Assembly (NCBI GenBank): GCA_034659915.1
Contig: JAYEID010000013.1
Location: 10,627-74,626 of the forward strand
Reading direction: 5' to 3'
DNA length: 64,000 nucleotides
Source of the DNA: Patescibacteria group bacterium
GTDB lineage: Bacteria > Patescibacteriota > WWE3 > JAUXAW01 > JAYEID01
Position 1 is the first letter of the stretch. Each line of letters begins with the position of its first letter. The notes beneath the pieces are model-generated. The model made no database searches, was not told the origin of the DNA, and saw only the letters and a list, made by a program, of their open reading frames with translations. This document shows positions 1 to 63,296 of this stretch, one piece after another. A program made the translations under genes and the position numbers.

Positions 1-7
1 ACATTAT

Positions 8-35
8 TTGGAGCTTAGGTATTAGAATTTAGTAT
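8..35 (+). promoter_or_regulatory. Conserved promoter-like module TTGGAG-16nt-TAGTAT upstream of dnaK
   Basis: TTGGAG (8-13), TAGTAT (30-35); the ATG at 48 has no SD, implying a very short leader. Confidence 0.4.
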
Positions 36-47
36 TTAAACATTATT

Positions 48-3282: not shown

Positions 3283-3624
3283 ATGAACATCGTTGCTTTT
3301 TTGTTTATACTTCTTGTTCGTGGGTTGGCGGTTTTTACTGCTTCTTATGTTATACCGGGTGTGGAGATAGCCTCTTTTGGGGTGGCAGTGATTACGGCGA
3401 TTGTTCTTGGGGTTCTCAATACTTTTCTCCGTCCGATTTTGATTTTCCTCACCTTACCTGTAAATATTTTAACTTTGGGGCTTTTTACCTTGGTTATAAA
3501 TATTTTAATTATTTTGCTTACTAGCAGGCTGGTTCCAGAGTTTAGTGTTTCTGGCTTGCTGCCCGCGTTAGTTTTTAGTATTATGTTGGTACTTACCAAT
3601 TGGTTTCTGAGTTTACTCGTCTAG
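3283..3624 (+). CDS. Small integral membrane protein, DUF360/phage-holin-4-like (YvlD-like)
   Basis: 113 aa, four predicted TM helices, motif LNTFLRPILIFLTLPVNILTLGLFTLVIN typical of the DUF360 family. Confidence 0.55.
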   Translation: MNIVAFLFILLVRGLAVFTASYVIPGVEIASFGVAVITAIVLGVLNTFLRPILIFLTLPVNILTLGLFTLVINILIILLTSRLVPEFSVSGLLPALVFSIMLVLTNWFLSLLV

Positions 3625-6118: not shown

Positions 6119-6435
6119 AAGGTTCCCTGAAAAGTTATGAAAACAGGTGACGTTCGTCATGCTTCTTCGTATTTAATAGAGGGTGTCTTCTTTCTTTTGT
6201 TCTTTTTTTGGTGGGTGGTTTTTGGTATTGTTTTGGAGAGGCGGGAAGGTAGGTGATTTCTACAACCCCATCCTTTTTCGGTAATAACTCCTGTATACCA
6301 TCCCTATAGCATTCTTTTTCCGAGACTTTGGTTTGCTTGGGGTGGCGGTTCGTTTGTGTTGTTCTTTTTTAGCGACTTTGCAACGGCCGGGAGATTTGGA
6401 GTTTAGTTTGGTTTAGGTAAGAAGCAAGGGGGTTT

Positions 6436-6729
6436 ATGATGGATAGCTGTGTAGATGATGTTTTGTTAGGATTTCGGCGCTGCTTGGGGAGAGTACCACT
6501 GAGAGAAGTGGAAGCTTTCTGTGTAACTCTTGAGGAATCGGATTCTTCCGGGGTTTTTGTGGAGAAGACCCCCCTCGGAAGGGAGTCTTTACTCTATCTG
6601 GTTGCTGAGATTTTGGAAGTTGATCCAGAGGTGCTACTTGTGGAGATGCGTAACTGGGTTGCGGATGTTCGTGCTATCCAGCATCTTAAGATGGAGGAAG
6701 CGGAGAGACGTCACCAGCCTTGTATTTAG
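6436..6729 (+). CDS. Small acidic hypothetical protein (97 aa)
   Basis: ORF with AAGGGGG RBS 7 nt upstream; followed by its own terminator (6757-6800). Confidence 0.45.
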
Positions 6730-6756
6730 TTTGTATTTAGGTTGGTTTTTCCTTTT

Positions 6757-7114: not shown

Positions 7115-7208
7115 GAATTAAGAGGTTCAATGGCATCAGTGGCGTCGGTAGGAATTTTCTACTGAGACTATTGGTTCTATTGACCTCTTTAGTTCCTCAA
7201 TAAGTTTT

Positions 7209-11196: not shown

Positions 11197-11291
11197 ATAT
11201 TTATTTGAGTATTTTAACTTAGAAACACTTGAGCACCAATTTACTATATGTTTGTATGCTTTAGTGTTTTATGTTTTGATGACCTTTATTT

Positions 11292-13007
11292 ATGCCAAAG
11301 TTTAAGAAAATTGACAAAAAAACATTACGTTTTATACCTTTGGGGGGCTCTGGGCAGGTAACTCGAAATATGTTTGCTTATGAGTGTGGCAGGGATATTG
11401 TTATTTTGGATTGCGGTGTGGGTTTTCCTGATTTTGAAACACCGGGGGTTGATGCAGCTATTCCTGATATTTCTTATTTGGAGGAAGAGGGAAAGCTTTC
11501 TAATATTCGAGGTATTATTATTACCCACGCTCATTATGATCACTTTGGAGCTCTTCCCCATCTATTACCCAAATTAGATGCTCCTGTTTATGCATCAAAG
11601 CTAGCTTTGGAATTTGCTCGTGCTACTTTGGACGAGGCTGGAATAAAGAGTGATAAAAAACTTTTTGAGATTGATCCGGATAATGGCGCTTTTGACCTAG
11701 GTTGTTTTCATATTGAACCTTTCCGGGTATGCCACTCAGTACCCGACTCTTTGGGTTTTCTACTTTCTACTCCAATTGGGAATATTTTTCATGTTTCTGA
11801 TTACAAATTTGATTGGACTCCGGTCGATGGGCGCCTTTTTGACGTGCGCAAATTAAGCAAGCTTGCAGGGCAAGAAAAACCGATGCTATTAGCTTCAGAT
11901 TGCTTAGGAGCTAATACCGAAGGCTATACCCAATCCGAGAAAGTATTAACAGATTCAATAGAAAAGCTTATTAGCGAGGCAGAGCACCAAATTTTCTTTA
12001 CTACTGTTTCTTCTAACATTTCTAGAATTCAACAAGCTGTTTGGGCAGCAGTGCGACACGGCCGTAAGGTCTGCTTTCTTGGTCGGTCCATGGAACAAAG
12101 CGCTTTGGTTGCCCGAAAACTTGGCTATCTGGAAGTTGAGAAAAAGAATTTGGTTCACCCTAAGCAGGCTCGCCGGTTTGATCAGTCAAAGTTGGCTTAT
12201 GTTGTAGCCGGGTGTTATGGTCAGGTAGGTTCTAGTTTGGAACGCCTTGCGCGCGGTGAGCACAGTTTGGTAGAGCTTGAGGGGAAGGTAGCAGTTATTT
12301 TTTCCGGTGACCCAGAGCCTCCTGGATCCAAGGAAGCAGTGGATAAAGTGGTGGACCAGCTTATTATGAGGGGGGCGGAAGTTTCCTATTATAAAATTCA
12401 GGATAATATGCATGTTTCGGGGCACGGTTCTGCATTAGATATTCAAATGCTTATGGGGTTGGTGCAATCAAAGTATTTTGTTCCCATTGGAGGTATGCCG
12501 CGTCATATGCAGGCATATTCAAAATTAGCTCAGGAAATGGGGGTTCCCCGGGAAAATGTTTTTGAATTGCAGGCAGGCGAGTATTTAGAATTTTCTGAAA
12601 ATTGGAAGAAAGGGAAGGGAGGAAAGCCACCGGAGAAGGGGGAATTCCCCTTCCGGGATATTTTAGTAGATGGTACCAGAATTGGAGATGTAGGTGATGT
12701 TGTCTTGCGGGACCGACAGCTGTTAGCTGATGATGGTATTGTTGTTCTAATTGTTCCTATTGATCCTAAGACAGGTAATATTTCAGGTTCTGTTGAAATT
12801 GCTACTCGCGGGTTTGTTTATGTACGCAAATCTCGGCAAATAATTTCTGATCTGGTGGGCATTGTGAAAAGTACAGCAGGATCCGAACCTTCAAAGAAAG
12901 AGGATTGGGGGGAACTGAAAAAGCAGCTTAGTACTAATGTCTTAAATTATATCCAGCAAAAAACAGGTCGTACACCTCTTATTCTTCCTGTAATAGTGGA
13001 AGTGTAG
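11292..13007 (+). CDS. rnj: Ribonuclease J (metallo-beta-lactamase/beta-CASP RNase)
   Basis: HAHYDHFGALP (HxHxDH), a beta-CASP region and the C-terminal domain characteristic of RNase J; 571 aa. Confidence 0.9.
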   Translation: MPKFKKIDKKTLRFIPLGGSGQVTRNMFAYECGRDIVILDCGVGFPDFETPGVDAAIPDISYLEEEGKLSNIRGIIITHAHYDHFGALPHLLPKLDAPVYASKLALEFARATLDEAGIKSDKKLFEIDPDNGAFDLGCFHIEPFRVCHSVPDSLGFLLSTPIGNIFHVSDYKFDWTPVDGRLFDVRKLSKLAGQEKPMLLASDCLGANTEGYTQSEKVLTDSIEKLISEAEHQIFFTTVSSNISRIQQAVWAAVRHGRKVCFLGRSMEQSALVARKLGYLEVEKKNLVHPKQARRFDQSKLAYVVAGCYGQVGSSLERLARGEHSLVELEGKVAVIFSGDPEPPGSKEAVDKVVDQLIMRGAEVSYYKIQDNMHVSGHGSALDIQMLMGLVQSKYFVPIGGMPRHMQAYSKLAQEMGVPRENVFELQAGEYLEFSENWKKGKGGKPPEKGEFPFRDILVDGTRIGDVGDVVLRDRQLLADDGIVVLIVPIDPKTGNISGSVEIATRGFVYVRKSRQIISDLVGIVKSTAGSEPSKKEDWGELKKQLSTNVLNYIQQKTGRTPLILPVIVEV

Positions 13008-13322: not shown

Positions 13323-15605
13323 ATGGGAAAGAGAGGACGTCCCCGAAAAGTTAAATTTGAGTTAGAGAGAGATGCTGCACATTCTATTGCAGCAGTAGCA
13401 ATTTTGGCTTTATCTATTCTTACTCTTCTCTCCTTTTTTGGTCAGGCTGCAGGTTTTGGTTCTATGCTACAGAAGCTATTGAATCGTGTTTTTGGGTGGG
13501 GTGCTTTTTTAGTTCCTTTTATTCTTGCCCTTTCTAGCCTTATTCTTTTTCGCAAATTGAAATGGAAGATTATTCAGCCTCGGATACTTACGGGTTTGGT
13601 TCTTTTTTTGCTATCTTTTGATGGTACTGTTCATTTTTTCTTTTCTCCAGCTGTTGCTAAAGAGGAAGCTCTTATGGGCCAAGGAGGTGGAATGTTGGGG
13701 TATATTATTCAGAAATATCTTCGCACTTTTTTAGGTCCCTTTGGTGCTATTTTAATTTTGGCCTCATTTCTTTTAGTTTCTGTTTTGGTTATCTTTAATG
13801 CATCATTGGATGAAACCTTAGTATTTTTGGGTAATGTTTTAAGCGGGATAGGGAGATTTTTTGAAAACTTTGTTTTTAGAGGCACTTTGAAAGTTGTTCG
13901 GAAGCTTATTGGTCGGGAAGATGATTTGGAGGCTGAGGTTGTGGAAGGTAAAGAAGGTAGTTCTGAGTTGTCCTATGTGGGTGACGATGATGAGGAATCT
14001 GAAGGCGAGGTGGAGGAAGAGAAACAAGTTGAGAAAGTGCGGAGAGATGATTTGGTTGTTGTACAAGCTACTTATACTCCGCTTGGTGTAGAAGAGGATT
14101 CTGAGGATGTTGGGGAAGATGTAGAAAAAGCTCCATTGCGGCACGAAACTGTAGCAAATCTTCCGGAGAGTAAGAAAGAATGGGAGTATCCCCCACTAAG
14201 TATATTGGAAGATATACCTCCTTATAAGAAGGATCAGGAGGAGATGAAAGATGAGGCGCAGAAGATTGAAGATACTTTGGAGTCTTTTGGAATTAAAGCA
14301 AATGTTGCAGATGTAAAAATAGGACCTACTGTTACTCAATATGCTTTGGAAGCTGCTTCTGGTACAAAGCTTACAAAAATAACTACGCTCCATAAAGATC
14401 TTGCTATGGCTTTAGCCTCCTCTACTGGATCTGTGCGAATAGAGGCACCTATTCCAGGGAAGTCGTTAGTAGGTATTGAGGTACCCAATAAAAAGCCGGC
14501 AACGGTAGGGTTGAAGAGTGTGTTAACTTCCGAAGCAATGAAAAAATCTTCTTCTGTTTTGAGTGTGGCGCTTGGGAAGAATGTTTCCGGGCGGCCCCAA
14601 GTGGCTGATTTGGCTAGGATGCCTCACGTGTTAATTGCTGGTGCTACGGGGAGTGGTAAGTCAGTTCTTATTCACTCCTTCATCTGTTCATTGCTTTTTC
14701 GAACTACTCCAGAGGAGGTTCGACTGATTTTGGCAGACCCTAAGAGGGTTGAACTTTCAATTTATAGAGAAATTCCCCACCTTTTGACTCCTGTTATTTT
14801 GGATTCGGATAAGATGCTCCCTACTTTAGATTGGGCTGTGGAAGAGATGGAACGAAGATATAAACTCTTTCAAGATGCTGGGGCTAAAGATATTGATTCT
14901 TATAATGAAATTTCTGGTTTTCAGGCACTCCCTAAGATTGTTTTGGTTGTGGATGAATTAGCGGACTTGATGGCAGCAGCAGCGAACGAAGTTGAGAAAG
15001 CGGTTGTCCGGTTGGCCCAGATGTCAAGGGCTACCGGTGTTCACTTGGTTCTTTCCACACAGCGGCCTTCTACTGATGTTTTGACTGGGTTGATCAAGGC
15101 AAATATTCCTTGTCGGATAGCGCTGAATACAACCTCGGGAGTAGATTCACGGGTAATTATTGATCAGCCTGGGGCAGATAAGCTCTTGGGGCGCGGAGAT
15201 ATGCTGTACTTACCTCCTGAAGCGTCTACGCCCAAGCGAATTCAAGCTCCCTTTATTTCACTTATTGAAATTAAAGCCCTTGTTGATTTCCTACGAGAAG
15301 AGATGGAGGAAGAACCGGAGTTTGAGGAAAGTCTTCAGGAGGCTCAAGAGAAAATTAGCCAAAGGAACAAGTTGGCTGAGGAGGAGAATTTGGAAGGGCT
15401 TAGTGATGAGCTGTTCCCAGATGCTGTGGAGGTTGTTTGTCGTCATGATCGTGGTTCCGCTTCTCTTCTTCAGCGAAAGCTTTCTATTGGTTATGCGAGG
15501 GCTGCAAGGCTTTTGGATGCTCTAGAGGCTAAGGGCGTGGTTGGTCCTAAGGATGGTTCCAAACCCCGCGAACTTTTGGTTTCCGATCCCAGCGAAGTGC
15601 TGTAG
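13323..15605 (+). CDS. ftsK: DNA translocase FtsK/SpoIIIE
   Basis: N-terminal TM helices, an acidic linker, motor domain with Walker A GATGSGKSV, and a C-terminal gamma winged-helix domain. Confidence 0.92.
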   Translation: MGKRGRPRKVKFELERDAAHSIAAVAILALSILTLLSFFGQAAGFGSMLQKLLNRVFGWGAFLVPFILALSSLILFRKLKWKIIQPRILTGLVLFLLSFDGTVHFFFSPAVAKEEALMGQGGGMLGYIIQKYLRTFLGPFGAILILASFLLVSVLVIFNASLDETLVFLGNVLSGIGRFFENFVFRGTLKVVRKLIGREDDLEAEVVEGKEGSSELSYVGDDDEESEGEVEEEKQVEKVRRDDLVVVQATYTPLGVEEDSEDVGEDVEKAPLRHETVANLPESKKEWEYPPLSILEDIPPYKKDQEEMKDEAQKIEDTLESFGIKANVADVKIGPTVTQYALEAASGTKLTKITTLHKDLAMALASSTGSVRIEAPIPGKSLVGIEVPNKKPATVGLKSVLTSEAMKKSSSVLSVALGKNVSGRPQVADLARMPHVLIAGATGSGKSVLIHSFICSLLFRTTPEEVRLILADPKRVELSIYREIPHLLTPVILDSDKMLPTLDWAVEEMERRYKLFQDAGAKDIDSYNEISGFQALPKIVLVVDELADLMAAAANEVEKAVVRLAQMSRATGVHLVLSTQRPSTDVLTGLIKANIPCRIALNTTSGVDSRVIIDQPGADKLLGRGDMLYLPPEASTPKRIQAPFISLIEIKALVDFLREEMEEEPEFEESLQEAQEKISQRNKLAEEENLEGLSDELFPDAVEVVCRHDRGSASLLQRKLSIGYARAARLLDALEAKGVVGPKDGSKPRELLVSDPSEVL

Positions 15606-15670
15606 TTTTTGCGCCGGGGGTACGCGTTTTCAAGAACCGCGCGCCCGACTAGTGACTTTGGTGACTGCGC

Positions 15671-15760
15671 GCTTAGAGAAAAATTTGCTTTGGTCCGGGG
15701 TTAGTAGATAACTAATTGTAAGCAAATTTTTCTATGCTCTTGAAAACGGCACCCCCGCCA
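15671..15760. repeat. Diverged partial copy of the 172-nt element (3' module) downstream of ftsK
   Basis: GCTTAGAGAAAAATTTGCTTT...AAGCAAATTTTTCTATGCTCTTGAAAACGGCACCCCCGCC aligns with the 3' half of the 172-nt element plus the GGCACCCCCGCC boundary motif. It is flanked by ~45-nt direct repeats (15577-15625 and 15801-15850). Confidence 0.75.
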
Positions 15761-15867
15761 TGCTTACAGCGTGAAAGTATCTGTTCTTAATCTGATTAGC
15801 GTATTTTGATTTCCAATCCCAGCGAAGTGACGTAAATTTCGGGGGTCCGCCGGATTCGCGCGAGACT

Positions 15868-15985
15868 TTGACAGGCACCCCCCTTTCAGGGCCGCTCGCA
15901 CCGTTCAGCGTTGGAGAGTAGGAAAGAGAACCGCTCGCTTTGTGATCAAAACCCTTCATGGCGGGAGCCTGCCAAGTCCCTTTCC
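15868..15985. repeat. Intergenic repeat family B, copy 2 (upstream of rodZ-like)
   Basis: Shares GGCACCCC..CT.TCAGGGCCGCTCGC.CC ... CGCT.GCTTTGTGATCAAAA..CCCTTCA.GGCGGGAGCC.GCCAA with 53603-53760. Confidence 0.75.
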
Positions 15986-17592: not shown

Positions 17593-19629
17593 TTGCAACC
17601 ACCGCTTTTTTCCGTTATTCTTAAGAACACAGTGACAGCTAGAGAATTGATTGAAAAGTATATTTCCTTTTTTGAGGCGCGTGGTCATGTTGAGATTGCT
17701 GGGGCTTCCTTAGTACCAGAAAATGATCCTTCTGCACTTTTTATCTCTGCTGGTATGCACCCTCTAATTCCCTTCTTGTTGGGAGAAGAACACCCTGCTG
17801 GTAAGCGCTTAGTTAGCTTACAAAAATGTATTCGAACAAATGATATTGAGCAAGTAGGTGACGGGTTTCATCATACCTTCTTCTTAATGCTTGGAAACTG
17901 GTCTTTGGGTGATTATTTTAAAAAAGAGGCAATCTCTTTTAGTTTTGAATTTCTTACTTCTTCTGAGTGGTTAGGGTTAGCTCCGGAAAGGTTGTATGTT
18001 TCTGTTTTTGCTGGTGATGAGACTGCTTCCCGGGATAAGGAGTCAATTAAGTATTGGAAGTTAGAATTTAAGAAAGTAGGGATTAAGGCTGAGGTGGGTG
18101 AGAGGATATTCTTCTTTGGAAAAGAAGAAAACTGGTGGGGACCTGTAGGTGATACAGGACCTTGCGGACCTGATACAGAAATATTTTATGATATAGGCAA
18201 AGACCATTGTGGTCCTAATTGCGATCCCTCTTGTCAATGTGGGAAATATATTGAAATTTGGAATGATGTGTTTATGGAATTTAAAAGAATCCGCCGGTTG
18301 GCGGACCGCAAACCGCAAACCGTGAACCGTGAACCGCAAGATAAAGAGCGGAAGGCGGAGAGCGGTTCGCGGAATGCCGATTACGAATATGTTCCTTTAG
18401 AGCAGAAAAATGTAGATACGGGGATGGGTGTAGCTAGGGTTGTTGCAGTTACTAGCGGCTACGCAGATGATGATTATAAAACCGACCTTTTCCACCCTAT
18501 TATTTCCAAGATTGAAGACTTGTCTGGTAAAGAATACCAGCAATTAGAAGTTAACAATGAACAATCGTTAGTTAGTTCAATGCGCATTATTGCTGATCAT
18601 GTACGGGCAGCTGTTTTTGCTATCAGTGATGGTGTAGTACCTTCAAATACAGATCGAGGTTACGTGGTTAGGCGACTAATTCGCCGTGCTGTTCGTCATG
18701 GACATGCTTTAAACATCCAAGATAGCTTTTTGGGGCAAGTTGCAGAGGTTGTAATTGAGAATTATAAGGATCTTTTTCCTGGGTTGGAAAGTGAGGAGGA
18801 AACAATACTTACTGAGATTTCCGATGAGGAAAAAAGATTTGGTAAGGTTTTGCGGAGAGGTTTGAAGCATTTTGAAAAGTTGGTTGAACAAAAAGTTGGT
18901 GATGAAACGCTGCCGCACCTGCCTGCCGGCAAGGCAGGTTCCCCAGCCCCTGGGGCTGCGGCCAAAGAAGCCCCAGGGGCTTCTCCTGCGCTGGGCGAGC
19001 GAATTACCGGGGAAGAAGCCTTCGACCTTTACCAAACATATGGGTTTCCGTTGGAGTTAACCAAAGAGCTGGCAGAGGAAAGGGGTTTAGCGGTTGATAG
19101 AAAGGGGTTTGAAGAGGCCTACAAAAAGCACCAAGAGAAATCCCGTTCTGGTGCAGATAAGAAATTTAGTGGGGGTTTGGTAAGTGAATCTGAAGAAGTT
19201 ATAAAACTGCATACAGCTACCCATCTTTTGCACGAAGCTCTGCGCCAGGTATTGGGTGCTCATGTAAAGCAGGAAGGGTCGAACATTACTCCCCAAAGAT
19301 TGCGGTTCGATTTTTCCCATCCAAAAGCAATGACGGAGGAGGAGATTGGAGAAGTCGAAGCTCTAGTTAATGAAAAAATAGAGGAAGATTTGCCCGTGCG
19401 GAAAGAGACCATGTCATTAGAGGAGGCAAGGGAGCGGGGTGCTTTAGCGTTTTTTACAGATAAATATGGAGATGAGGTGAAAGTTTATTCTATTGGCGGA
19501 TTTTCAAAAGAAGTTTGCGCTGGTCCTCATGTTGATTCTACCGGGAAACTTGGTAAATTTGAGATAATAAAGGAAGAATCTGTGGGTCGCGGTAAACGGA
19601 GAATCCGTGCTATACTGAAAAAGGATTAG
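17593..19629 (+). CDS. alaS: Alanyl-tRNA synthetase, short form (catalytic, tRNA-binding and editing domains; no C-Ala domain)
   Basis: Class II AlaRS core (ARGHVEIAGASLVP...FISAGMHP...QKCIRTNDIE..GDGFHHTFFLMLGNWSLGDYFK) and an editing domain with HxxxH...CAGPH. The start is uncertain: TTG at 17593 or GTG at 17630 (MTARELIEKY). The gene carries an in-frame 78-nt GC-rich repeat at 18913-18990. Confidence 0.9.
   Translation: MQPPLFSVILKNTVTARELIEKYISFFEARGHVEIAGASLVPENDPSALFISAGMHPLIPFLLGEEHPAGKRLVSLQKCIRTNDIEQVGDGFHHTFFLMLGNWSLGDYFKKEAISFSFEFLTSSEWLGLAPERLYVSVFAGDETASRDKESIKYWKLEFKKVGIKAEVGERIFFFGKEENWWGPVGDTGPCGPDTEIFYDIGKDHCGPNCDPSCQCGKYIEIWNDVFMEFKRIRRLADRKPQTVNREPQDKERKAESGSRNADYEYVPLEQKNVDTGMGVARVVAVTSGYADDDYKTDLFHPIISKIEDLSGKEYQQLEVNNEQSLVSSMRIIADHVRAAVFAISDGVVPSNTDRGYVVRRLIRRAVRHGHALNIQDSFLGQVAEVVIENYKDLFPGLESEEETILTEISDEEKRFGKVLRRGLKHFEKLVEQKVGDETLPHLPAGKAGSPAPGAAAKEAPGASPALGERITGEEAFDLYQTYGFPLELTKELAEERGLAVDRKGFEEAYKKHQEKSRSGADKKFSGGLVSESEEVIKLHTATHLLHEALRQVLGAHVKQEGSNITPQRLRFDFSHPKAMTEEEIGEVEALVNEKIEEDLPVRKETMSLEEARERGALAFFTDKYGDEVKVYSIGGFSKEVCAGPHVDSTGKLGKFEIIKEESVGRGKRRIRAILKKD
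18913..18990. repeat. GC-rich palindromic repeat element inserted in-frame in alaS (copy 1)
   Basis: ~78 nt, ~90% identical to 29191-29269. Contains palindrome CCTGCCTGCCGGCAAGGCAGG and the inverted pair AGCCCCTGGGGCT / AGCCCCAGGGGCT. It is translated as PAGKAGSPAPGAAAKEAPGASPA. Confidence 0.85.
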
Positions 19630-19684
19630 CTTGAACTTGTTAATCAACTATTGCAAATTATTAGTTTAAAGCGCTATTGAAGTT

Positions 19685-20905
19685 ATGTTTCCTGCCATAA
19701 ATTTATTTAAAAGTAAGTCCTCCACTCCCTGTTATCTTTCTCTAGATGTTGGTTCTGGTTCTTGTAAAGCCCTTTCTTTTTCCTGTGTTGTTTTGGAGGG
19801 AGAAAGTGAGGAACGGAAAAGGATAAAAGCTTTAGGAGCGGGTAGTGTTTCCCAGAACTCTTCCGAGATGAGTATGGGTGTACCGGCGGATATTAAGGCG
19901 GTGACTAATCATATTGGAGATGCGGTAGACGAGGCTACTCTTCCTCTGGAGGGACTGAAAATTAAGAACAGAATTTTAGGGCTTTCAGGAGAGATGATTT
20001 CTTTCCTTACTACTAGAATGCGTTTAACTAGGGCAAATCCGGATAAGCCCATTTCAAAAAAAGAGATTGCCCGAATAGAAAGGAAAGCGCAACAAGCTGC
20101 ATTTCTTGAGGCGCATAAGGAGTTGGCAGCAAGAAAAGGTTACCAAGACCTTGATTTAGAAATAGTAGATTCAGCAATAACCGGAGTGGAGGTTGATGGG
20201 TTTCCTGCTACTGAGCCTGAGGGATTTAAGGGAGAGAAGGTGGAGCTTTCCTATTTTAATTCTTTTGCTCCTCAGGACCGACTCTATACTTTGGAATCTA
20301 TTCTTCGTAATTTGAAACTCAAACCACAATTGGTCACAGCTAGTATGTATGCACTTTTACATGCTTTATTGGAAAATTCTCCCAGTACAGGAGTTTCATC
20401 TGTTTTGATAGATATGGGAGCGGATAAAACAGATGTGGGTGTTGTTTTTGATAGTTCTATAGTTTCTAATCGCACACTTCCTATTGGTGGCCGGGATTTT
20501 ACAGAGGCTATCGCGCATAGTTTGGAAATTTCTTTTTCTGAAGCTGAAGGATTGAAACGCAATTATAGTGAAGATGGTGATGATAACGCTAGGATTCAGA
20601 GTGCGGTTGCTGATGTTTTAGAGGTGTGGTCACAGGGATTAATAGATGCATTAATGAATATTAAGGAGGTGAAAGCGTTTCCACCTCAAGTTAATATTTA
20701 TGGTGGTGGTGCGGAATTTAAGGTAGTGTTAGAGCATTTGAGATCTCTGTCTTGGAAACAGAATTTGCCGTTTCACAGCGATCCGCGCGTAAGTATTCTT
20801 AGGCCAGAGGATTTTGATTTTTTTGAGGATGAAACAGGTCAAGTAAGTAAGTCTGATTGGGTTGTACCTGTTGTTTTGAGTTGGTTTGGTTGTAAGGTTC
20901 TTTAG
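19685..20905 (+). CDS. Actin-like ATPase of the FtsA/PilM family
   Basis: LSLDVGSGSCKAL phosphate-1 motif and VLIDMGADKTDVGVV...LPIGGRDFTEAIA motifs of the FtsA/PilM/MreB superfamily; 406 aa. Confidence 0.7.
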   Translation: MFPAINLFKSKSSTPCYLSLDVGSGSCKALSFSCVVLEGESEERKRIKALGAGSVSQNSSEMSMGVPADIKAVTNHIGDAVDEATLPLEGLKIKNRILGLSGEMISFLTTRMRLTRANPDKPISKKEIARIERKAQQAAFLEAHKELAARKGYQDLDLEIVDSAITGVEVDGFPATEPEGFKGEKVELSYFNSFAPQDRLYTLESILRNLKLKPQLVTASMYALLHALLENSPSTGVSSVLIDMGADKTDVGVVFDSSIVSNRTLPIGGRDFTEAIAHSLEISFSEAEGLKRNYSEDGDDNARIQSAVADVLEVWSQGLIDALMNIKEVKAFPPQVNIYGGGAEFKVVLEHLRSLSWKQNLPFHSDPRVSILRPEDFDFFEDETGQVSKSDWVVPVVLSWFGCKVL

Positions 20906-28708: not shown

Positions 28709-29416
28709 ATGTCTGTTGTCGCACGAAGTTTTTATAAGGGAAAGACTACGAGTATTGCTAAAAACCTTTTGGGAAAGGTTTTGGTTCGCCACGTAAAGCC
28801 CACGGAGAGTGGGTCACGTGCCACCGAAGTTGAGAATGAAATAAACAAGAAAGGAATAATCGTAGAGACGGAGGCTTATTTAGGACCGGAGGATAAGGCT
28901 TGCCATTCCTTCAGAGGGAAGACAGAAAGAACGGAGGTAATGTTTGGACCGGCGGGGCATGCTTATGTTTATTTGGTTTACGGAATTCATTATATGTTTA
29001 ATATTGTGACTGAGGCTCCGGGAGAAGCTGTTTTGGTTCGAGCACTTGAACCCCTTGGTGGTGAATTTGGTAAACGCATTGCTTCCGGTCCGGGTAAACT
29101 GACAAAGTGGCTTAATATTGATAAAAGCTTCAACGGTTGGGATTTGACCAAGGGGGAGGGGTTGTGGATTTCCCATGAGCCGCGATCTTCGCCGTACCTG
29201 CTTGCCGGCAAGGCGGGTTCCCCAGCCCATGGGGCTGCGGCCAGAGAAGCCCCAGGGGCGTCTCTTGCGGCGGAGGATTTAGACCACGGAAATTTCGAAA
29301 TTTCTTCCGCAAAAAGAGTTGGTGTAGATTACGCCGAAGAGTGGTCGGAAAAACCGCTTCGTTTTTTCATCAAAGATAATCCCGCTGTTTCTACAGCGCA
29401 GGACTCCTTATGTTAA
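28709..29416 (+). CDS. 3-methyladenine DNA glycosylase (MPG/AAG family)
   Basis: VETEAYLGPEDKACHSFRGKTERTEVMFGPAGHAYVYLVYGIHYMFNIV matches the MPG family; carries the in-frame GC-rich repeat at 29191-29269. Confidence 0.8.
   Translation: MSVVARSFYKGKTTSIAKNLLGKVLVRHVKPTESGSRATEVENEINKKGIIVETEAYLGPEDKACHSFRGKTERTEVMFGPAGHAYVYLVYGIHYMFNIVTEAPGEAVLVRALEPLGGEFGKRIASGPGKLTKWLNIDKSFNGWDLTKGEGLWISHEPRSSPYLLAGKAGSPAHGAAAREAPGASLAAEDLDHGNFEISSAKRVGVDYAEEWSEKPLRFFIKDNPAVSTAQDSLC
29191..29269. repeat. GC-rich palindromic repeat element inserted in-frame in the MPG glycosylase gene (copy 2)
   Basis: Same element and same translated frame as copy 1 (LAGKAGSPAHGAAAREAPGAS). Confidence 0.85.
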
Positions 29417-31149: not shown

Positions 31150-31395
31150 TTAGAGAGGTTAGCAAACCCCTAAGTTTCTCAACAGTTTTTGTTGAAACAC
31201 CTTCCCAAAGCCCTTTTATCTGTTTCCTGTTTTTAGCTTCCGGCTTCTATACTTTAGTACTTAAAATTTTGAATTTGAAATTTAGAAATTGAAGTCCGTC
31301 TTAATTTTTGTATTAACAGAGTTCGGGTTTTACCGAGACCATTGCTGTAAACATCTGCCTGTGTTATCATCTTTTCCTAGAAAGGCAATTTTATT

Positions 31396-32694
31396 ATGAT
31401 CCAAACGGAATTTTCAGCAGCATTGAACCAAGTTTGTGCTGAACGAGGTTTAGAGCCAGAAAAAGTATTAGAAGCGGTAGAAGAAGCCCTTCTTACAGCT
31501 TATCTTAAAGATCATCCCGAGGTGGAAAGTGAGTCCGAATCCTTTGAAGTTAAATTGGATCCGGAAACAGGTGAGGCACGTATTTTGAAGGAGGGTGATG
31601 ATGTGACACCTTCGGGGTTTGGACGCATTGCAGCTCAGACAGCAAAGCAAATTATTTTTCAGAGAGTTCGCGAGGCAGAGAAGGAGGCTTTAGCAGGGGA
31701 ATATGAGAAAAAAATAGGTGCTATTGTGAATGGTTATATTTTTAGGAAGGATAAAGGTGTAGTTGTTTTGGATCTGGAGCGTACTCAGGGAATTATGCCT
31801 CCGGGAGAGCAGGTTCCGGGCGAGAATTATTCTTTGAACCAGCAGCTCAAGGTTTTGGTAGCTGAGGTGCGCGAAGGTCCGCGAGGTCCTGAAGTAATAG
31901 TTTCTAGATCTAGACCTGAGTTTGTGAAACAGCTTTTTGTATTGGAAGTTCCAGAAATAGATTCCGGTACGGTAGTGATAGAGGCAGTGGCGAGAGAAGC
32001 AGGGCAAAGGACCAAGATTGCAGCTTCTTCTGCAAGTAAAAATGTGGATCCTGTAGGTTCTTTGGTAGGTCAAAAAGGCGTACGTGTTCAATCTGTGATT
32101 AGGGAATTAGGTCATGAGAAGATTGATATTATTGAGTATAGTGCAGATCCAGCCCGGTTTATTGCTAATGCCCTTTCTCCGGCAGATGTAACAAGTGTAG
32201 TTTTGGATGAAGAAACAGAAACAGCAACCGTTTCTGTTCCAGAGGACCAGCTATCTTTGGCAATTGGTAAAGGTGGTCAAAATGTGAGGTTAGCCGCTAA
32301 ATTAACAGGTTGGCGTATTGATATTCGTGGTCCTGAGGGCCAGCCGTTGGGTAGTGGTGTTGAAGGTGCTACAAGTTTAGAGGTGTTGGACCTTCCTACT
32401 CGAGTGGAAAATTGTTTGGAGGAAGCAGGGTTTTCTACAGTCGAAGAATTAGCTTCTCTGTCCGAGGAGGAGTTAAGTGAAATGGAGGGAATTGGGGCTA
32501 AATCTATTGAGAAAATTGTGAAAGCTTTAGAAACAGCAGATTTAGAGGAAGCGGGGGAAGAGGATAAAGAAAGTGAAGATGAGGATAGTGAAAATGTGCT
32601 TGAAGAGGAAATAGAGGAAGAAGGTGTTGAGGAGGAAAGGGAACCGGAGGACGAGGAGGAAAAGGAAAAAGATGTGGAAAAGCAGGAAAATTAA
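31396..32694 (+). CDS. nusA: Transcription termination/antitermination factor NusA
   Basis: N-terminal domain, S1, two KH domains (GQKGVRVQSVIRELG; GKGGQNVRLAAKLTG), a C-terminal HhH-like segment and an acidic tail. Confidence 0.92.
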   Translation: MIQTEFSAALNQVCAERGLEPEKVLEAVEEALLTAYLKDHPEVESESESFEVKLDPETGEARILKEGDDVTPSGFGRIAAQTAKQIIFQRVREAEKEALAGEYEKKIGAIVNGYIFRKDKGVVVLDLERTQGIMPPGEQVPGENYSLNQQLKVLVAEVREGPRGPEVIVSRSRPEFVKQLFVLEVPEIDSGTVVIEAVAREAGQRTKIAASSASKNVDPVGSLVGQKGVRVQSVIRELGHEKIDIIEYSADPARFIANALSPADVTSVVLDEETETATVSVPEDQLSLAIGKGGQNVRLAAKLTGWRIDIRGPEGQPLGSGVEGATSLEVLDLPTRVENCLEEAGFSTVEELASLSEEELSEMEGIGAKSIEKIVKALETADLEEAGEEDKESEDEDSENVLEEEIEEEGVEEEREPEDEEEKEKDVEKQEN

Positions 32695-39910: not shown

Positions 39911-39972
39911 CCTTGATGGCAGAACTTTAGCAGGCACCTCGCCCGTAGAAAGTTTCCGGTTGCGGAACGCGT

Positions 39973-40144
39973 CGGTGCTACACGCTTTCAAGAGCCCTTG
40001 TACTACATAGAGTACAGGGCAGGCCGTGCTTAGGATTGAGCGCGTTTACCCCGAACCCTGCGTGGTTTGGGGCTTAGAGAAAAATTTGCTTTTAGTTTAT
40101 TGTTAATTGATAGGTTATTGTGGGCAAATTTTTCTATGCTCTTG
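39973..40144. repeat. 172-nt structured intergenic repeat, copy 1 (between rpoB and rpoC)
   Basis: 100% identical to 50854-51025; internal hairpins (CTTGTACT/AGTACAGG; CCCCGAACC/GGTTTGGGG with a G-U pair) and a long-range inverted repeat TTAGAGAAAAATTTGC / GCAAATTTTTCTATGC. Confidence 0.9.
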
Positions 40145-44592: not shown

Positions 44593-44670
44593 CAATTGTT
44601 CATCTATTGTTTATCGCGATTCTGATCGCAGTTTAACGGCAACTTCTGAGTTGCATTTTACGAGTGTTTA
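44593..44670 (+). ncRNA. Conserved intercistronic structured element (rpsL-rpsG), copy 1
   Basis: CAATTGT...CGCGATTCTGATCGCAGTTTAACG shared with 56461-56535; hairpin GCGAT-tctg-ATCGC and a second hairpin GCAACT-tctg-AGTTGC whose stem covaries with GCAGTT-tccg-AACTGC in copy 2. Confidence 0.5.
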
Positions 44671-50832: not shown

Positions 50833-50853
50833 TAGGTAGTATTGTGGATGCGC

Positions 50854-51025
50854 CGGTGCTACACGCTTTCAAGAGCCCTTGTACTACATAGAGTACAGGG
50901 CAGGCCGTGCTTAGGATTGAGCGCGTTTACCCCGAACCCTGCGTGGTTTGGGGCTTAGAGAAAAATTTGCTTTTAGTTTATTGTTAATTGATAGGTTATT
51001 GTGGGCAAATTTTTCTATGCTCTTG
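50854..51025. repeat. 172-nt structured intergenic repeat, copy 2 (between rplW and rplB)
   Basis: Identical to 39973-40144. Confidence 0.9.
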
Positions 51026-52010: not shown

Positions 52011-52068
52011 GCATTTTTAAAAGCACCAAACATCAAATACCAAGTTCCAGAAGTTTGTTATTTGAAGT

Positions 52069-52096
52069 TTGGAGTTTGGAATTTAAAATTTAGTAT
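52069..52096 (+). promoter_or_regulatory. Conserved promoter-like module TTGGAG-16nt-TAGTAT upstream of rpsS
   Basis: Same architecture and spacer-sequence family as modules upstream of dnaK (8-35) and rplV (52447-52474). Confidence 0.4.
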
Positions 52097-52113
52097 TTAG
52101 AATTTAAAAAATT

Positions 52114-52407: not shown

Positions 52408-52446
52408 GGGAGAATTTCGAAATTCGAATCTCGAAATCCAAAATAT

Positions 52447-52474
52447 TTGGAGCTTAGGATTTAGAATTTATGAT
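52447..52474 (+). promoter_or_regulatory. Conserved promoter-like module TTGGAG-16nt-TATGAT upstream of rplV
   Basis: ATTTGGAGCTTAGG.ATTTAGAATTTA is shared almost verbatim with positions 6-29 upstream of dnaK. Confidence 0.4.
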
Positions 52475-52484
52475 TTAAATTATT

Positions 52485-53602: not shown

Positions 53603-53760
53603 TTTGGCGGGCACCCCGCCTCTCAGGGCCGCTCGCGCCTGTCGAAGTTTAAGTCTGATTTGGTTAAGCGCTTGCTTTGTGATCAAAAGTCGAATGGTGT
53701 CAGTGAATAATTGTAGCGACTTTTGATCAAAACCCTTCAAGGCGGGAGCCAGCCAACGTC
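53603..53760. repeat. Intergenic repeat family B, copy 1 (between rpsC and rplP), with a nested hairpin insertion
   Basis: Same modules as 15868-15985, plus a ~45-nt insert forming TGATCAAAAGTCG...CGACTTTTGATCA (53680-53730), flanked by direct repeat GATCAAAA. Confidence 0.75.
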
Positions 53761-53850
53761 TTGTTAGATTCTTAGTTTGGAGTTTTTGATTTGTTGTTTA
53801 TTTGAAATTTGTAATTTGTTCCGCCGGCCGGCGGATTGGAATTATTAACT

Positions 53851-54270
53851 ATGTTGTATCCAAAAAAGAAGAAATATAGAAGAGAATTTAGAGGAACTCT
53901 TAAAGGTGTTGCTCAACGAGGGACAACACTGGCTTTTGGTGATTATGGTTTAAAAGCCTTGGGTAATGGTTGGATAACTATGCGCCAAATAGAAGCAGCA
54001 CGGAGGGCTATAGTTCATTCTACCAAGAGAAGTGGGAAAATGTGGATAAGGATTTTTCCAGATAAGCCTGTTACAGCTAGACCTGCGGGAATGAGAATGG
54101 GTCGGGGTAAGGGTCCTGTTGACCATTATGTGGCGCCAGTTAAGGCTGGAAGAATTCTGTTTGAGTTGGGAGGATTAGATGAGGGTGCTGCTCGAGAAGC
54201 TTTGCGGCGTGCTGCTAACAAGCTTCCAACTAAGACAGAAATAGTTACTCAAGAGGATTTTGTAGTTTAA
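53851..54270 (+). CDS. rplP: 50S ribosomal protein L16
   Basis: MLYPKKKKYRREFRG...; start at 53851 rather than the ORF-track start at 53836. Confidence 0.94.
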   Translation: MLYPKKKKYRREFRGTLKGVAQRGTTLAFGDYGLKALGNGWITMRQIEAARRAIVHSTKRSGKMWIRIFPDKPVTARPAGMRMGRGKGPVDHYVAPVKAGRILFELGGLDEGAAREALRRAANKLPTKTEIVTQEDFVV

Positions 54271-54285
54271 ATTTTTTAAAATAAA

Positions 54286-54492
54286 ATGACGAAGGCGCAA
54301 GAATTACGACAAGAAAGTAAAGAAAGTTTGGAAAAGAAATTAAAGGATTTGCAAAAAGAGTTAATGAATTTACAGATGGAGCACCGAACTGATGGGTTGG
54401 TGGATACTACCGTTTTAAGTAAAAAGAGAAGGGAAATAGCAAAGATAAAAACAGTGTTACGAGAAAAAGAGGTTTTAGCTCAGATTGAGTAA
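54286..54492 (+). CDS. rpmC: 50S ribosomal protein L29
   Basis: L29 family, 68 aa, coiled-coil. Confidence 0.9.
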   Translation: MTKAQELRQESKESLEKKLKDLQKELMNLQMEHRTDGLVDTTVLSKKRREIAKIKTVLREKEVLAQIE

Positions 54493-54509
54493 GCAGCTGA
54501 TTAACTATT

Positions 54510-54875
54510 ATGTTGCAGCCAGGATCTATTCTAAAAGTAGCTGACAATTCCGGAGCAAAGGAGCTAAAGGTTATTACTATTATTGGTTCCAAAAACTGGG
54601 CAGAGGTTGGGGATGTGGTGTCGGGTTCTGTTCAAGGTGTGACTTCGGGCGAAAGCGAGGTTTCGGACCACGAGGTAGTGAGAGCAGTTGTGGTTCGTAC
54701 TAAGAAGGAGAAAAGGCGTAAGGACGGTTCTTATATTCGTTTTGATGACAATGCTTGTGTTATCTTGGACAAGCGGGGCCTCCTCTTGGGAACACGGGTT
54801 CTTGGTCCGGTTGCTCGTGAAGTTCGAAAATCCGGCTTTGTAGATGTTGCATCCAAAGCGCCGGAAGTTATTTGA
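54510..54875 (+). CDS. rplN: 50S ribosomal protein L14
   Basis: VADNSGAKE...AVVVRTKKEKRRKDGSYIRFDDNACV...GTRVLGPVAREVR. Confidence 0.95.
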   Translation: MLQPGSILKVADNSGAKELKVITIIGSKNWAEVGDVVSGSVQGVTSGESEVSDHEVVRAVVVRTKKEKRRKDGSYIRFDDNACVILDKRGLLLGTRVLGPVAREVRKSGFVDVASKAPEVI

Positions 54876-54900
54876 TTTGTAATTAAATTCCGATTTTAGT

Positions 54901-55140
54901 ATGCCAAAGAAAACTCTAGAAGGAAAAGTTATTTCTGACAAAATGGATAAAACTGTGGTGGTTGAAGTTATGCGGACATACCACCACCCGCGCTATAAGA
55001 AGCGCGTTGAGAAACACAAGAAGTATAAGGCTCATGATTCGTTGGGAGCTAAAGTGGGAGATGTTGTGCAAATAGAGGAATGTCGTCCTCTTAGTAAGGA
55101 TAAACACTTTAAGGTGATTAGGATACTCGCGGATTCTTAA
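54901..55140 (+). CDS. rpsQ: 30S ribosomal protein S17
   Basis: GKVISDKMDKTVVVEV...HDSLGAKVGDVVQIEECRPLSKDKHFKV; lies after rplN, the reverse of the usual order. Confidence 0.93.
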   Translation: MPKKTLEGKVISDKMDKTVVVEVMRTYHHPRYKKRVEKHKKYKAHDSLGAKVGDVVQIEECRPLSKDKHFKVIRILADS

Positions 55141-55250
55141 ATTTGGTGGAGATCCAATAAGCATATTCTATTAACAACCTATTTGTTGCCTAATTGCGGA
55201 CAGTAGTTTGAAAGCTTTTCGCAGATGGAATCTGCGGGAGTTAGCATTAA

Positions 55251-55559
55251 ATGAAAATACATTCTGGTGATAAGGTAAAAATAATTTCTGGTAAAGACCG
55301 TAGTAAGACTGGTACTGTAGAAAAGGCTTACCCGAAAAAGGGTAAGGTTTTGGTGCCAGGAATACATGTAGTTAAAAAACATGTACCACCTACTGAAGAT
55401 AAACCTGAGGGTGGTTACATTGAAAAGTCATTGCCAATTGATGTTTCCAACGTTATGTTAATTTGTTCCAATTGTGGAGAACCCACAAGAGTTGGATTCT
55501 CTTTTGAGGGAGGTCGAAAGTTACGTAAGTGTAAAAAGTGCGGTTCCATGTTGAGTTGA
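55251..55559 (+). CDS. rplX: 50S ribosomal protein L24 with a C-terminal Cys4 zinc-ribbon
   Basis: KOW domain MKIHSGDKVKIISGKDRSKTGTV; C-terminus CSNCGEPTRVGFSFEGGRKLRKCKKCGSML with CxxC...CxxC. Confidence 0.9.
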   Translation: MKIHSGDKVKIISGKDRSKTGTVEKAYPKKGKVLVPGIHVVKKHVPPTEDKPEGGYIEKSLPIDVSNVMLICSNCGEPTRVGFSFEGGRKLRKCKKCGSMLS

Positions 55560-56460: not shown

Positions 56461-56535
56461 CAATTGTATTACTATCGTTTTACGCGATTCTGATCGCAGT
56501 TTAACGCAGTTTCCGAACTGCATTTAACGTGAGCG
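56461..56535 (+). ncRNA. Conserved intercistronic structured element (rpsN-rpsH), copy 2
   Basis: See copy 1; compensatory base changes keep the second hairpin. Confidence 0.5.
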
Positions 56536-56547
56536 TAGCGAGCTATT

Positions 56548-56940: not shown

Positions 56941-57198
56941 TGACAAACGCGAATCTACACAAATTAAAAGCGAACGAACGCTAATGGAAAAGGAAAGAAG
57001 TAGCAGATTTTCTCGTCCCTGGAAGCCCGCGCTCCTTGTAATGTCCATTTCGAGTTCCGACACTGGTCGAAATGAGAAATCTCAAGAGTAAATAACTATT
57101 GTTTTATGTGGGTCTGCCCGCGATTTAGTGAGGAGTTCTGACGACGAACAATTAACGTGGCTTCTTAGCCACAAATTACGCGCTTTTGGCGCATTATT

Positions 57199-63212: not shown

Positions 63213-63296
63213 GAGGAACTATCAATTTCCAATTATCAATTTTAAATTGGTTGACATTACGAGCTACCAGTTACTGGTTACTAATTACTAATTTTT

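Follow-up and report, generated by a model that had tools for sequence, protein, structure and literature searches.

In a 64,000-nucleotide (nt) stretch of contig JAYEID010000013.1 from a Patescibacteria group bacterium, referred to here as the window, a short sequence module is repeated immediately upstream of dnaK, rpsS and rplV (gene names in the window are the Pfam labels on identical public contigs). This module is a degenerate tandem array of 7-nt units that runs into the start context usual for the lineage, in which a Shine-Dalgarno (SD) sequence is lacking, and the unit repeated from gene to gene is a palindromic cassette, about 75-100 nt long, which takes up the whole intercistronic spacer. 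A preliminary description of the same DNA had read the module as an internal promoter, which the cassette probably is not. The explanation preferred here, although only tentatively, is that the cassette is a co-transcribed intercistronic hairpin followed by an A/U-rich leader, and that it acts post-transcriptionally.

The near-identical modules before dnaK and rplV, the similar copy before rpsS and the weaker copy before rplP were all recovered where the preliminary description had placed them, and TTGGAG followed by a second hexamer at a 16-nt spacing is common to three of three copies. The pattern TTGGAG-N16-TAKKAT has exactly three matches in the window (positions 8, 52069 and 52447), against 0.09 expected and with none of 100 shuffles reaching three, and all of them lie directly 5' of a gene, namely dnaK, rpsS and rplV. 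A repeat finder assigned 5-40, 52066-52101 (75%) and 52444-52479 (89%) to one repeat family, and the weaker copy begins at 53776. The distance from the second hexamer to the ATG, previously given as 13-17 nt, measures 12 nt for dnaK, 17 nt for rpsS and 10 nt for rplV. Read in register, the copies resolve into heptamers: TTTGGAG CTTAGGT ATTAGAA TTTAGTA TTTAAAC before dnaK, TTTGGAG CTTAGGA TTTAGAA TTTATGA TTTAAA before rplV, and TTTGAAG TTTGGAG TTTGGAA TTTAAAA TTTAGTA TTTAGAA TTTAAAA before rpsS. The degenerate consensus of the array is TTTGGAG-CTTAGGA-TTTAGAA-TTTAKKA-TTTAAA, with the unit TTTRGAR. Tandem Repeats Finder reports period 7 at 52061-52109 and 53800-53819, and period 14 or 21 at 52052-52109 and 52454-52481, such that the periodicity of what had been called an ATTTAGA-type spacer stands, in the form of a true period-7 tandem array.

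TTTGGAG forms, in each of the three copies, the 3' arm of a hairpin, the 5' arm of which is a complementary, A-rich heptamer array that starts at most about 15 nt from the stop codon of the preceding gene. The window edge truncates the dnaK copy, and an identical public contig (L001) supplies grpE and a 74-nt spacer upstream of it; this grpE-dnaK spacer holds AAGCTCCAAA, which matches the reverse complement of TTTGGAGCTT in the module exactly. The 3' part of the cassette occupies 1-47 (plus strand), with the T-type array at 7-41, ATTATT at 42-47, the dnaK ATG at 48 and a hairpin GCUCCAAA/UUUGGAGC (z -3.2), and its 5' arm, beyond the window edge, reads …GAAATTC GAAATCA TAAATTC GAAGCTC CAAAAAA and overlaps grpE, the A-type arm encoding the final codons and the stop. 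The rplB-rpsS cassette (52011-52113, plus strand) fills a 103-nt spacer with an A-type arm at about 52020-52048 (CACCAAA CATCAAA TACCAAG TTCCAGA), a T-type arm of seven units at 52061-52109 with periods 7 and 21 in Tandem Repeats Finder, and then AATT and the ATG. The rpsS-rplV cassette (52408-52484, plus strand) fills a 77-nt spacer with an A-type arm at 52412-52444 (GAATTTC GAAATTC GAATCTC GAAATCC AAAAT), a T-type arm of five units, the last partial, at 52446-52478, and ATTATT at 52479-52484 before the ATG. The similarity previously noted between 42-nt modules is real, but its limits had been drawn wrongly, as the full grpE-dnaK and rpsS-rplV spacers align end to end and agree at 53 of 63 positions (z 7.7); the rpsS copy has diverged further from the other two (z 4.2-4.5). 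Because these spacers align as wholes, the unit is a palindromic cassette and not a promoter-sized block, and the earlier suggestion of a duplicated regulatory cassette is borne out as regards duplication but not as regards a -35/spacer/-10 unit, the thing duplicated being the whole palindromic spacer.

Similar arrays occur throughout the intergenic DNA, which makes up approximately 17-20% of the window. The autocorrelation of intergenic sequence peaks at lags 7, 14 and 21, and coding DNA has period 3 only. T-type arrays of at least three units number six on the plus strand, all of them intergenic, against 1.06 +/- 1.03 expected for the window, and in the window and four relatives together the count of T-type arrays is 18 for 23.6 kb of intergenic DNA vs one for 102 kb of coding DNA. 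Polarity with respect to the flanking genes was measured by an array-specific count, used in place of the A-minus-T skew of spacer ends, which gave a weak trend (58 of 94, p = 0.02). Over the same five loci the order of A-type near the upstream stop and T-type near the downstream start is kept in 26 of 30 cases (p = 6e-5), and 15 of the 18 T-type arrays lie nearer the start than the stop, with array-to-start distances in the window of 4, 6, 11, 18 and 30 nt.

The remaining arrays of the window, all on the plus strand, are more varied. The weaker T-type array of the rpsC-rplP spacer (53776-53820; TTTGGAG TTTTTGA TTTGTTG TTTATTT GAAATTT GTAATTT) is followed by a GC hairpin (CCGCCGGCCGGCGG) and then the rplP ATG at 53851. 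A three-unit T-type array at 11260-11280 stands 11 nt before the start of an RNase J-like gene at 11292, a short array at 6395-6420 (TTTGGAG TTTAG TTTGG TTTAGG) stands 41 nt before the ATG at 6436, and a six-unit T-type array at 31253-31294 (TTTAGTA CTTAAAA TTTTGAA TTTGAAA TTTAGAA ATTGAAG) is found 101 nt 5' of the gene starting at 31396. The complementary, A-type array is represented in the rpsM-rpsK spacer (63220-63247), where it begins 7 nt past the rpsM stop codon.

SD-like sequence precedes only eight of the 61 genes in the window, and the genes without it include some that lie 2-23 nt from their upstream neighbour. None was found before dnaK, rpsS or rplV, confirming that initiation at these three genes is SD-independent; however, the further step taken in the preliminary description, from the missing SD to leaderless mRNAs, does not hold, since the SD is absent from most genes and its absence is therefore uninformative in this respect. 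Both the window and two relatives show the start context A(-3) T(-2) T(-1), and over the 61 gene starts of the window C is preferred at +5. The sequence ATTATTATG occurs eight times against 0.5 expected, six of these at gene starts, and it also precedes rpoC, rplF and rpsE, all of which are without an array; ATTATT is not specific to the module. As separate observations on start sites, the EF-Tu gene (47691) and a few others have a strong AAGGAGG, and two genes (3283 and 27975) look leaderless, with TGnTAnnAT, then 6-7 nt, then ATG.

Ordinary bacteria have an SD-bearing rpsS-rplV spacer of 5-25 nt, as judged from a metagenome scan with L22 that serves as a baseline only, its matches (proteins 50-62% identical) coming from such bacteria. 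The S10/spc operon of the window and of four relatives (76-87% S19 identity) has spacers of tens to hundreds of nt; the relatives of the window also include WWE3, with S19 about 70% identical. At the rplB-rpsS and rpsS-rplV junctions the units of the relatives are AAATGTC/GACATTT, GTAAAGC/GCTTTAC, TAATTAGAA and TTTAAAA/TTTGTAA, and each orthologous spacer folds into a single hairpin that spans it (z -1.6 to -4.8), with an A/U-rich single-stranded tail of 10-20 nt left before the AUG. Such a hairpin is present at both junctions in all five genomes, with the exception of rpsS-rplV in L129. It is the layout that recurs, not the sequence, and relatives differ through gain and loss of the elements; the L4-L23 spacer is 2, 2, 109, 319 and 25 nt long in the five genomes, and the L18-S5 spacer 9, 32, 414, 46 and 81 nt. 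Between two strains (L002 and the window, 99.85% identity over 8.9 kb) there is a single indel, by which the tandem repeat TTGTATTTAGG gains or loses one 11-nt unit at window positions 6720-6744, at the 3' end of the open reading frame (ORF) 6436-6729. Exact-protein look-ups returned short Logan contigs identical to the window, which held no new sequence and no array difference between strains. Sequencing runs SRR26901925 and SRR26901928 contain the organism.

A scan of GTDB for TTTGGAGYTTRGNNNTTARAATTTA, with one genome per species, identified 43 loci, where chance alone would be expected to give about 0.5 to roughly 10 at most according to our own composition-based estimate. The matches cover groups of the candidate phyla radiation (CPR), Dehalococcoidia, Bacteroidota including a Mucilaginibacter isolate, Planctomycetota and a cyanobacterium, and they include four Verrucomicrobiota at 59-62% GC, a fifth (Rubritalea) at 53%, and a 3.4-Mb Acidobacteriota contig. 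Extended arrays surround 21 of 44 matches, many matches have the junction TTTR-TTTGGAGYTT, and about 12 end 3-20 nt before an ATG on the same strand; several lie between convergent genes, and the few inside ORFs are apparently due to chance. The hairpin layout was also found elsewhere, in Dehalococcoidia (z -5.2, with a normal SD after it), Haloferula (-3.3), Patescibacteria (-4.8) and Acidobacteriota (-2.2). No class enrichment was seen among the downstream genes in other phyla (ftsZ, dnaE-like, map, tsf, gltD-like, permease and lipoprotein genes), and the enrichment by gene class that had been proposed as a check on the promoter reading accordingly revealed no common function. Scans of viral contigs gave no hits for the pattern and none for its reversed control, and therefore offer neither a calibration nor a link to phages. 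In a related composite, seen at L004, L016, L024, L040 and L041 (the JALVIH01 metagenome-assembled genome (MAG) and a Microgenomates MAG), a TTTGGAGCTTAGGATTTAGAATTTA array is followed by GTGCTTTCTT and then by (CTAGTTC)n, which can pair with the TTTGGAGCTTAGGATTTAGAATTTA array via G-U wobbles; this composite occurs at least seven times in one MAG.

The tentatively preferred explanation would operate as follows. The cassette would be transcribed within the operon mRNA, its inner, G/C-containing units (TTTGGAG with CTCCAAA) would nucleate a hairpin between the cistrons, and its outer, A/U-only units together with ATTATT would stay weakly structured over the 10-25 nt directly 5' of the AUG. Because a transcribed cassette would place a hairpin between cistrons and an open A/U stretch before the AUG, its effect would be post-transcriptional and not on transcription initiation. 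The A/U-rich stretch may provide a platform for SD-independent, S1-type loading of the 30S subunit; another option is that the intercistronic stem insulates the neighbouring cistrons, or is processed and stabilises them. CPR bacteria keep RNase III, RNase J and PNPase (PMC12641178), and genes for RNase J and PNPase are present in the window. The arrays themselves could arise by replication slippage together with copying between spacers. In the predicted fold of the dnaK copy, the main stems do not include the AUG, which is at most in a marginal helix of 4 bp (minimum free energy structure; 3 bp in the centroid). An RNA thermometer of the fourU/ROSE type before dnaK was considered and ruled out, as there is no SD and the same cassette also precedes rplV, and Rfam gave no hits over the whole window at the gathering threshold and none at E <= 1 over 39900-64000.

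Several results weigh against a post-transcriptional role. Of the three hairpins in the window, two outdo shuffled sequence only modestly (z -1.4 and -1.7), and three of the seven cross-phylum spacers folded were not significant. In a raw comparison, 27 of 30 spacers fold better as the sense than as the antisense strand, but this excess is gone after a dinucleotide-shuffle control (-1.3 kcal/mol, p = 0.32); the difference is accounted for by G+T-rich composition and was dropped as a sign of RNA-level selection, leaving no strand-specific evidence for selection on RNA structure. Co-transcription is assumed from the operon organisation, and all genes at these loci are co-oriented, so that transcription polarity is inseparable from replication polarity. 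Spacer length at the same junction ranges from -17 to more than 400 nt among relatives, which is what a dispensable element would show, and a normal SD follows the hairpin in L011 and in the rplB-rpsS spacer of L128, where the T-arm is therefore not needed as a ribosome-binding site. In addition, the rpsS copy holds two overlapping sigma-70-like matches of 9/12, 14 nt apart, and the presence or absence of spacers at the same junction among relatives fits neutral or selfish DNA equally well.

Neutral or selfish spacer DNA is the alternative that survives best, and although unlikely on balance it deserves serious weight. The cassettes would then be products of slippage, of palindrome-generating template switching or of a mobile tiny hairpin, tolerated by SD-independent, uncoupled initiation and without a function of their own. 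Such an origin is consistent with repeat units that are wholly different between relatives, with an only strain indel over 9 kb that amounts to one tandem-repeat unit, with the several other dispersed repeat families in the window spacers (one at 99% identity), with the lack of a sense-strand-specific folding signal after the shuffle control, and with downstream genes that are functionally unrelated in other phyla. Over-representation of heptamer simple sequence repeats has been attributed to polymerase slippage (PMC4692102), and an IS200/IS605-type Y1 transposase gene (PF01797) adjoins the operon in L129, just 3' of the spc operon at 19646-19960, its product being a possible candidate for an enzyme mobilising hairpin elements. 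However, filler would not be expected to keep its polarity in 26 of 30 cases and to end 3-20 nt before the ATG, unless insertion or slippage is itself polar, nor to retain a spacer-spanning hairpin at rplB-rpsS and rpsS-rplV (other than rpsS-rplV of L129) despite turnover of the sequence. The recurrence of the same ordered 25-mer in several phyla, including genomes of approximately 60% GC, also argues against it, and long spacers would be surprising in a streamlined CPR genome.

An internal promoter is improbable. On this reading, which was that of the preliminary description, each module is a sigma-70-type promoter (-35 TTGGAG, 16 nt, -10 TAGTAT/TATGAT) from which dnaK, rpsS and rplV would be transcribed with a very short leader or none. 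Both hexamers are indeed at a 16-nt spacing in every copy, the two window genes at 3283 and 27975 do look leaderless, AT-rich arrays of this unit are inherently promoter-like and so could fire, and the Vibrio cholerae ctxAB promoter uses TTTTGAT heptads (10.1101/2021.05.14.444153). Nevertheless, TTGGAG matches TTGACA at only 3/6 positions, and the dnaK copy (7/12) and rplV copy (8/12) are both under the 9/12 scan criterion and go unreported by a standard scan. The geometry of the hexamers falls out of the 7-nt periodicity, because the 22 nt between hexamer starts equal three units plus one (22 = 3x7+1); (TTTAGAA)n or (TTTAAAA)n yields a sigma-70-like pair in every 7-nt register, and random arrays of the observed units are promoter-like in 25% of cases, compared with 7% for composition-matched 42-mers. 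The proposed comparison with a consensus inferred from the genes at large also went against TTGGAG, in that the best promoter-like sites of the window are TGnTATAAT (3267, 4830, 35470 and 43969), none with a TTGGAG -35, the modules have no TG-extended -10, and no -10 peak appears at a fixed distance 5' of start codons. Array-ATG distances span 3-101 nt, and the gap of 10-17 nt from -10 to ATG would give a leader of 3-10 nt, neither leaderless nor SD-led. The complementary arm follows stop codons, the element is also found between convergent genes, and deletion of the heptamers at Nostoc recO left basal promoter activity unchanged (10.1101/2022.06.06.494920). The internal promoters claimed for the S10 cluster come down to a match of 7-8/12 in two copies that is largely a product of the periodicity, in hexamers that are unconserved at the orthologous spacers of L126-L129. 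As A/T-rich heptamer arrays mimic sigma-70 promoters by construction, motif-based promoter calls in genomes of this kind need a periodicity control.

Slightly less probable again is that the array constitutes a multivalent site for a sequence-specific factor co-regulating the downstream genes, either at the RNA level (S1, a cold-shock protein or a CsrA-like protein) or at the DNA level (a nucleoid or regulatory protein). Across phyla, the ordered composite TTTR-TTTGGAGYTTRG…TTARAATTTA is met repeatedly beyond what simple periodicity would give, its GGAG and AGGA cores repeat every 7 nt (GGA/GGAG motifs at this spacing being what suggests the candidates on RNA), and the same candidates have been proposed for TAACTGA repeats (PMC4679880), but the units at the same junctions in relatives are unrelated and the downstream genes are without a common function. 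An intrinsic terminator or attenuator of the upstream gene is very unlikely, for although an A-rich 5' arm with a U-rich 3' arm resembles a bidirectional terminator and some copies lie between convergent genes in other genomes, the A/U-rich stems are weak and run into UUAGG… instead of a U-tract, a terminator scan reported none of the cassettes, and ending transcription inside the essential S10 operon would need a promoter at each site, which is weakly evidenced.

A further, more far-reaching reading of the cross-phylum matches is improbable. TTTR-TTTGGAG-CTTAGGA-TTTAGAA-TTTA and its complement could be a specific tiny palindromic module common to at least eight phyla (CPR, Chloroflexota, Verrucomicrobiota at approximately 60% GC, Bacteroidota, Acidobacteriota, Planctomycetota, Cyanobacteria and gammaproteobacterial MAGs) and kept by a universal partner, for which the 30S subunit with S1, a cold-shock-type protein and RNase III would be candidates. 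If so, it would be a general signal for SD-independent ribosome loading or intercistronic processing that has been overlooked as low-complexity DNA.

Among known systems, the closest class is that of start-proximal intergenic heptanucleotide tandem repeats of the TAACTGA, STRR (short tandemly repeated repetitive) or Nostoc type. The arrays here share with this class at least three contiguous 7-nt units (3-7), an exclusively intergenic and start-proximal location, the missing SD and a place in a ribosomal protein (r-protein) operon; they depart from it in that the unit is not that of a described family and the arrays are not direct repeats only. A literature search with the literal sequence gave irrelevant matches only. 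TAACTGA repeats are known from marine Beggiatoaceae, Cyanobacteria and Bacteroidetes (MacGregor 2015, PMC4679880). Like the arrays here, they consist of tandem 7-nt units (2-6 or more copies), are intergenic, end a few nt before start codons and occur inside r-protein operons, with sites at fusA, L3, S4 and pnp and the SD mostly absent, and a translational role has been proposed for them (PMC4679880). Downstream genes without a common function and a patchy spread across phyla are likewise common to both. In contrast to TAACTGA, the unit TTTRGAR is degenerate and follows a gradient from G-rich to A-rich, the host belongs to the CPR, and inverted pairs form spacer-spanning hairpins, whereas BOGUAY has 169 direct sets and one indirect (PMC4679880).

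Heptamers described in cyanobacteria include the Calothrix STRR and GGGGAYT, alongside GGGAATC in Xanthomonas (PMC4692102), and Nostoc PCC 7120 has (TTTTGAA)3 and GAC(C/T)AAT x8 (10.1101/2022.06.06.494920). As in the window, the cyanobacterial repeats are contiguous heptamers, located within 30-100 nt of the start codons or promoters of many unrelated genes, and the Nostoc TTTTGAA is nearly the same unit as TTTGAAG/TTTAGAA. The Xanthomonas GGGAATC repeats share inverted arrangements with stem-loop potential, and slippage is the origin proposed for heptamers of this group (PMC4692102). The cyanobacterial arrays differ in being mostly perfect direct repeats, of which the G-rich ones form quadruplexes, something impossible for an A/T-rich unit, and the Nostoc recO data concern LexA and NtcA binding near a promoter and not intercistronic spacers (10.1101/2022.06.06.494920). 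The TTTTGAT heptads of V. cholerae ctxAB form, like the arrays here, a T-rich heptamer array directly 5' of a gene, and their copy number affects expression; but they lie 5' of the core promoter, where they recruit transcription regulators (10.1101/2021.05.14.444153), and they neither pair with a complementary arm into a palindrome nor sit between cistrons.

Repetitive extragenic palindromic (REP) sequences, bacterial interspersed mosaic elements (BIMEs) and palindromes resembling miniature inverted-repeat transposable elements (MITEs) are similar to the cassette in being short, intergenic, present in several similar copies per genome and often located in operons. REP hairpins affect mRNA stability. 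The cassette differs from REP and MITE elements in having arms built of tandem heptamers. No flanking target-site duplication was recognisable by eye at the dnaK, rpsS and rplV copies, and neither a REP-associated tyrosine transposase (RAYT) nor another transposase is linked to them in the window, no transposase search of the genome having been made. The finding of relatives with the same layout and unrelated sequences fits local generation better than the spread of one element.

Start-adjacent heptamers have been noticed for decades in cyanobacteria, Beggiatoaceae, Bacteroidetes and Xanthomonas without an assigned function. The present analysis adds heptamer arrays in a CPR genome and four relatives, inside the normally compact S10/spc operon, inverted pairs that form spacer-spanning hairpins with a fixed polarity to the flanking genes, and one ordered array found in many phyla, often directly next to the ATG. 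Should the cassette act on mRNA, it would help to explain the expression of operons in lineages with approximately 87% of genes SD-less and cistrons 80-400 nt apart; if it is neutral, it would be a clear case of repeat invasion of essential operons in streamlined genomes. The cross-phylum recurrence of the ordered array and the fixed polarity are the parts most worthy of attention.

Several other repeat families were observed in the window. A G+C-rich palindromic repeat of approximately 79 nt, with copies 91% identical, is found at 18912-18990, at 29191-29269 and at the end of grpE (L001 1-30), in each case in-frame inside an ORF (the AlaRS-like ORF 17593-19629, ORF 28709-29416 and grpE), where it adds a peptide such as LPAGKAGSPAPGAAAKEAPGASPA; it recalls the ORF-inserting palindromic elements of Rickettsia. 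A 176-nt element is 99% identical between 39969-40144 (rpoB-rpoC spacer) and 50850-51025 (rplW-rplB spacer), with a partial copy at 15679-15764; its spacer has a compact multi-hairpin junction fold (z -5.1) without an Rfam match, and the element contains TGCTCTTGGAAAC/TGCTCTTGAAAAC, which we take to be loosely like the boxA antitermination motif. A second spacer type consists of two small tetraloop-like hairpins parted by AAATTAC(G)/TTTAACG and followed by AWTATT-ATG, and is present at 56480-56547 (before rpsH), 57150-57198 (before rplF), 44593-44638 and L126 1901-2069; repeat family D14 joins 44593-44638 and 56461-56506, and this spacer type recurs at various junctions within the window and in L126. 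The 305-nt spacer at 15606-15910 (region 15574-15975) is a mosaic of repeat families D2, D13, D16 and D17, from which TTTTGATCAAAACCCTTCAAGGCGGGAGCCAGCCAA recurs at 53721-53756, just 5' of the weak rplP array. The rpsO-pnp spacer (7115-7208) has a very stable sense fold, at -44.2 kcal/mol vs -18.9 kcal/mol for shuffles (z -8.2; antisense z -3.2), and by analogy may be a pnp leader hairpin like the RNase III-cleaved leader of Escherichia coli pnp.

The operon itself also shows unusual features. The gene order L29-L14-S17-L24 is shared by the window (54286-55559) and L126-L128, the usual L29-S17-L14-L24 being kept by L129. L30 is missing between S5 and L15, which overlap by 14 nt. In the relatives, toxin-antitoxin genes (HicA-like; PIN/MazE) are situated between or beside the genes of the str/S10 operons (L128 1949-2478; L129 1331-2007).

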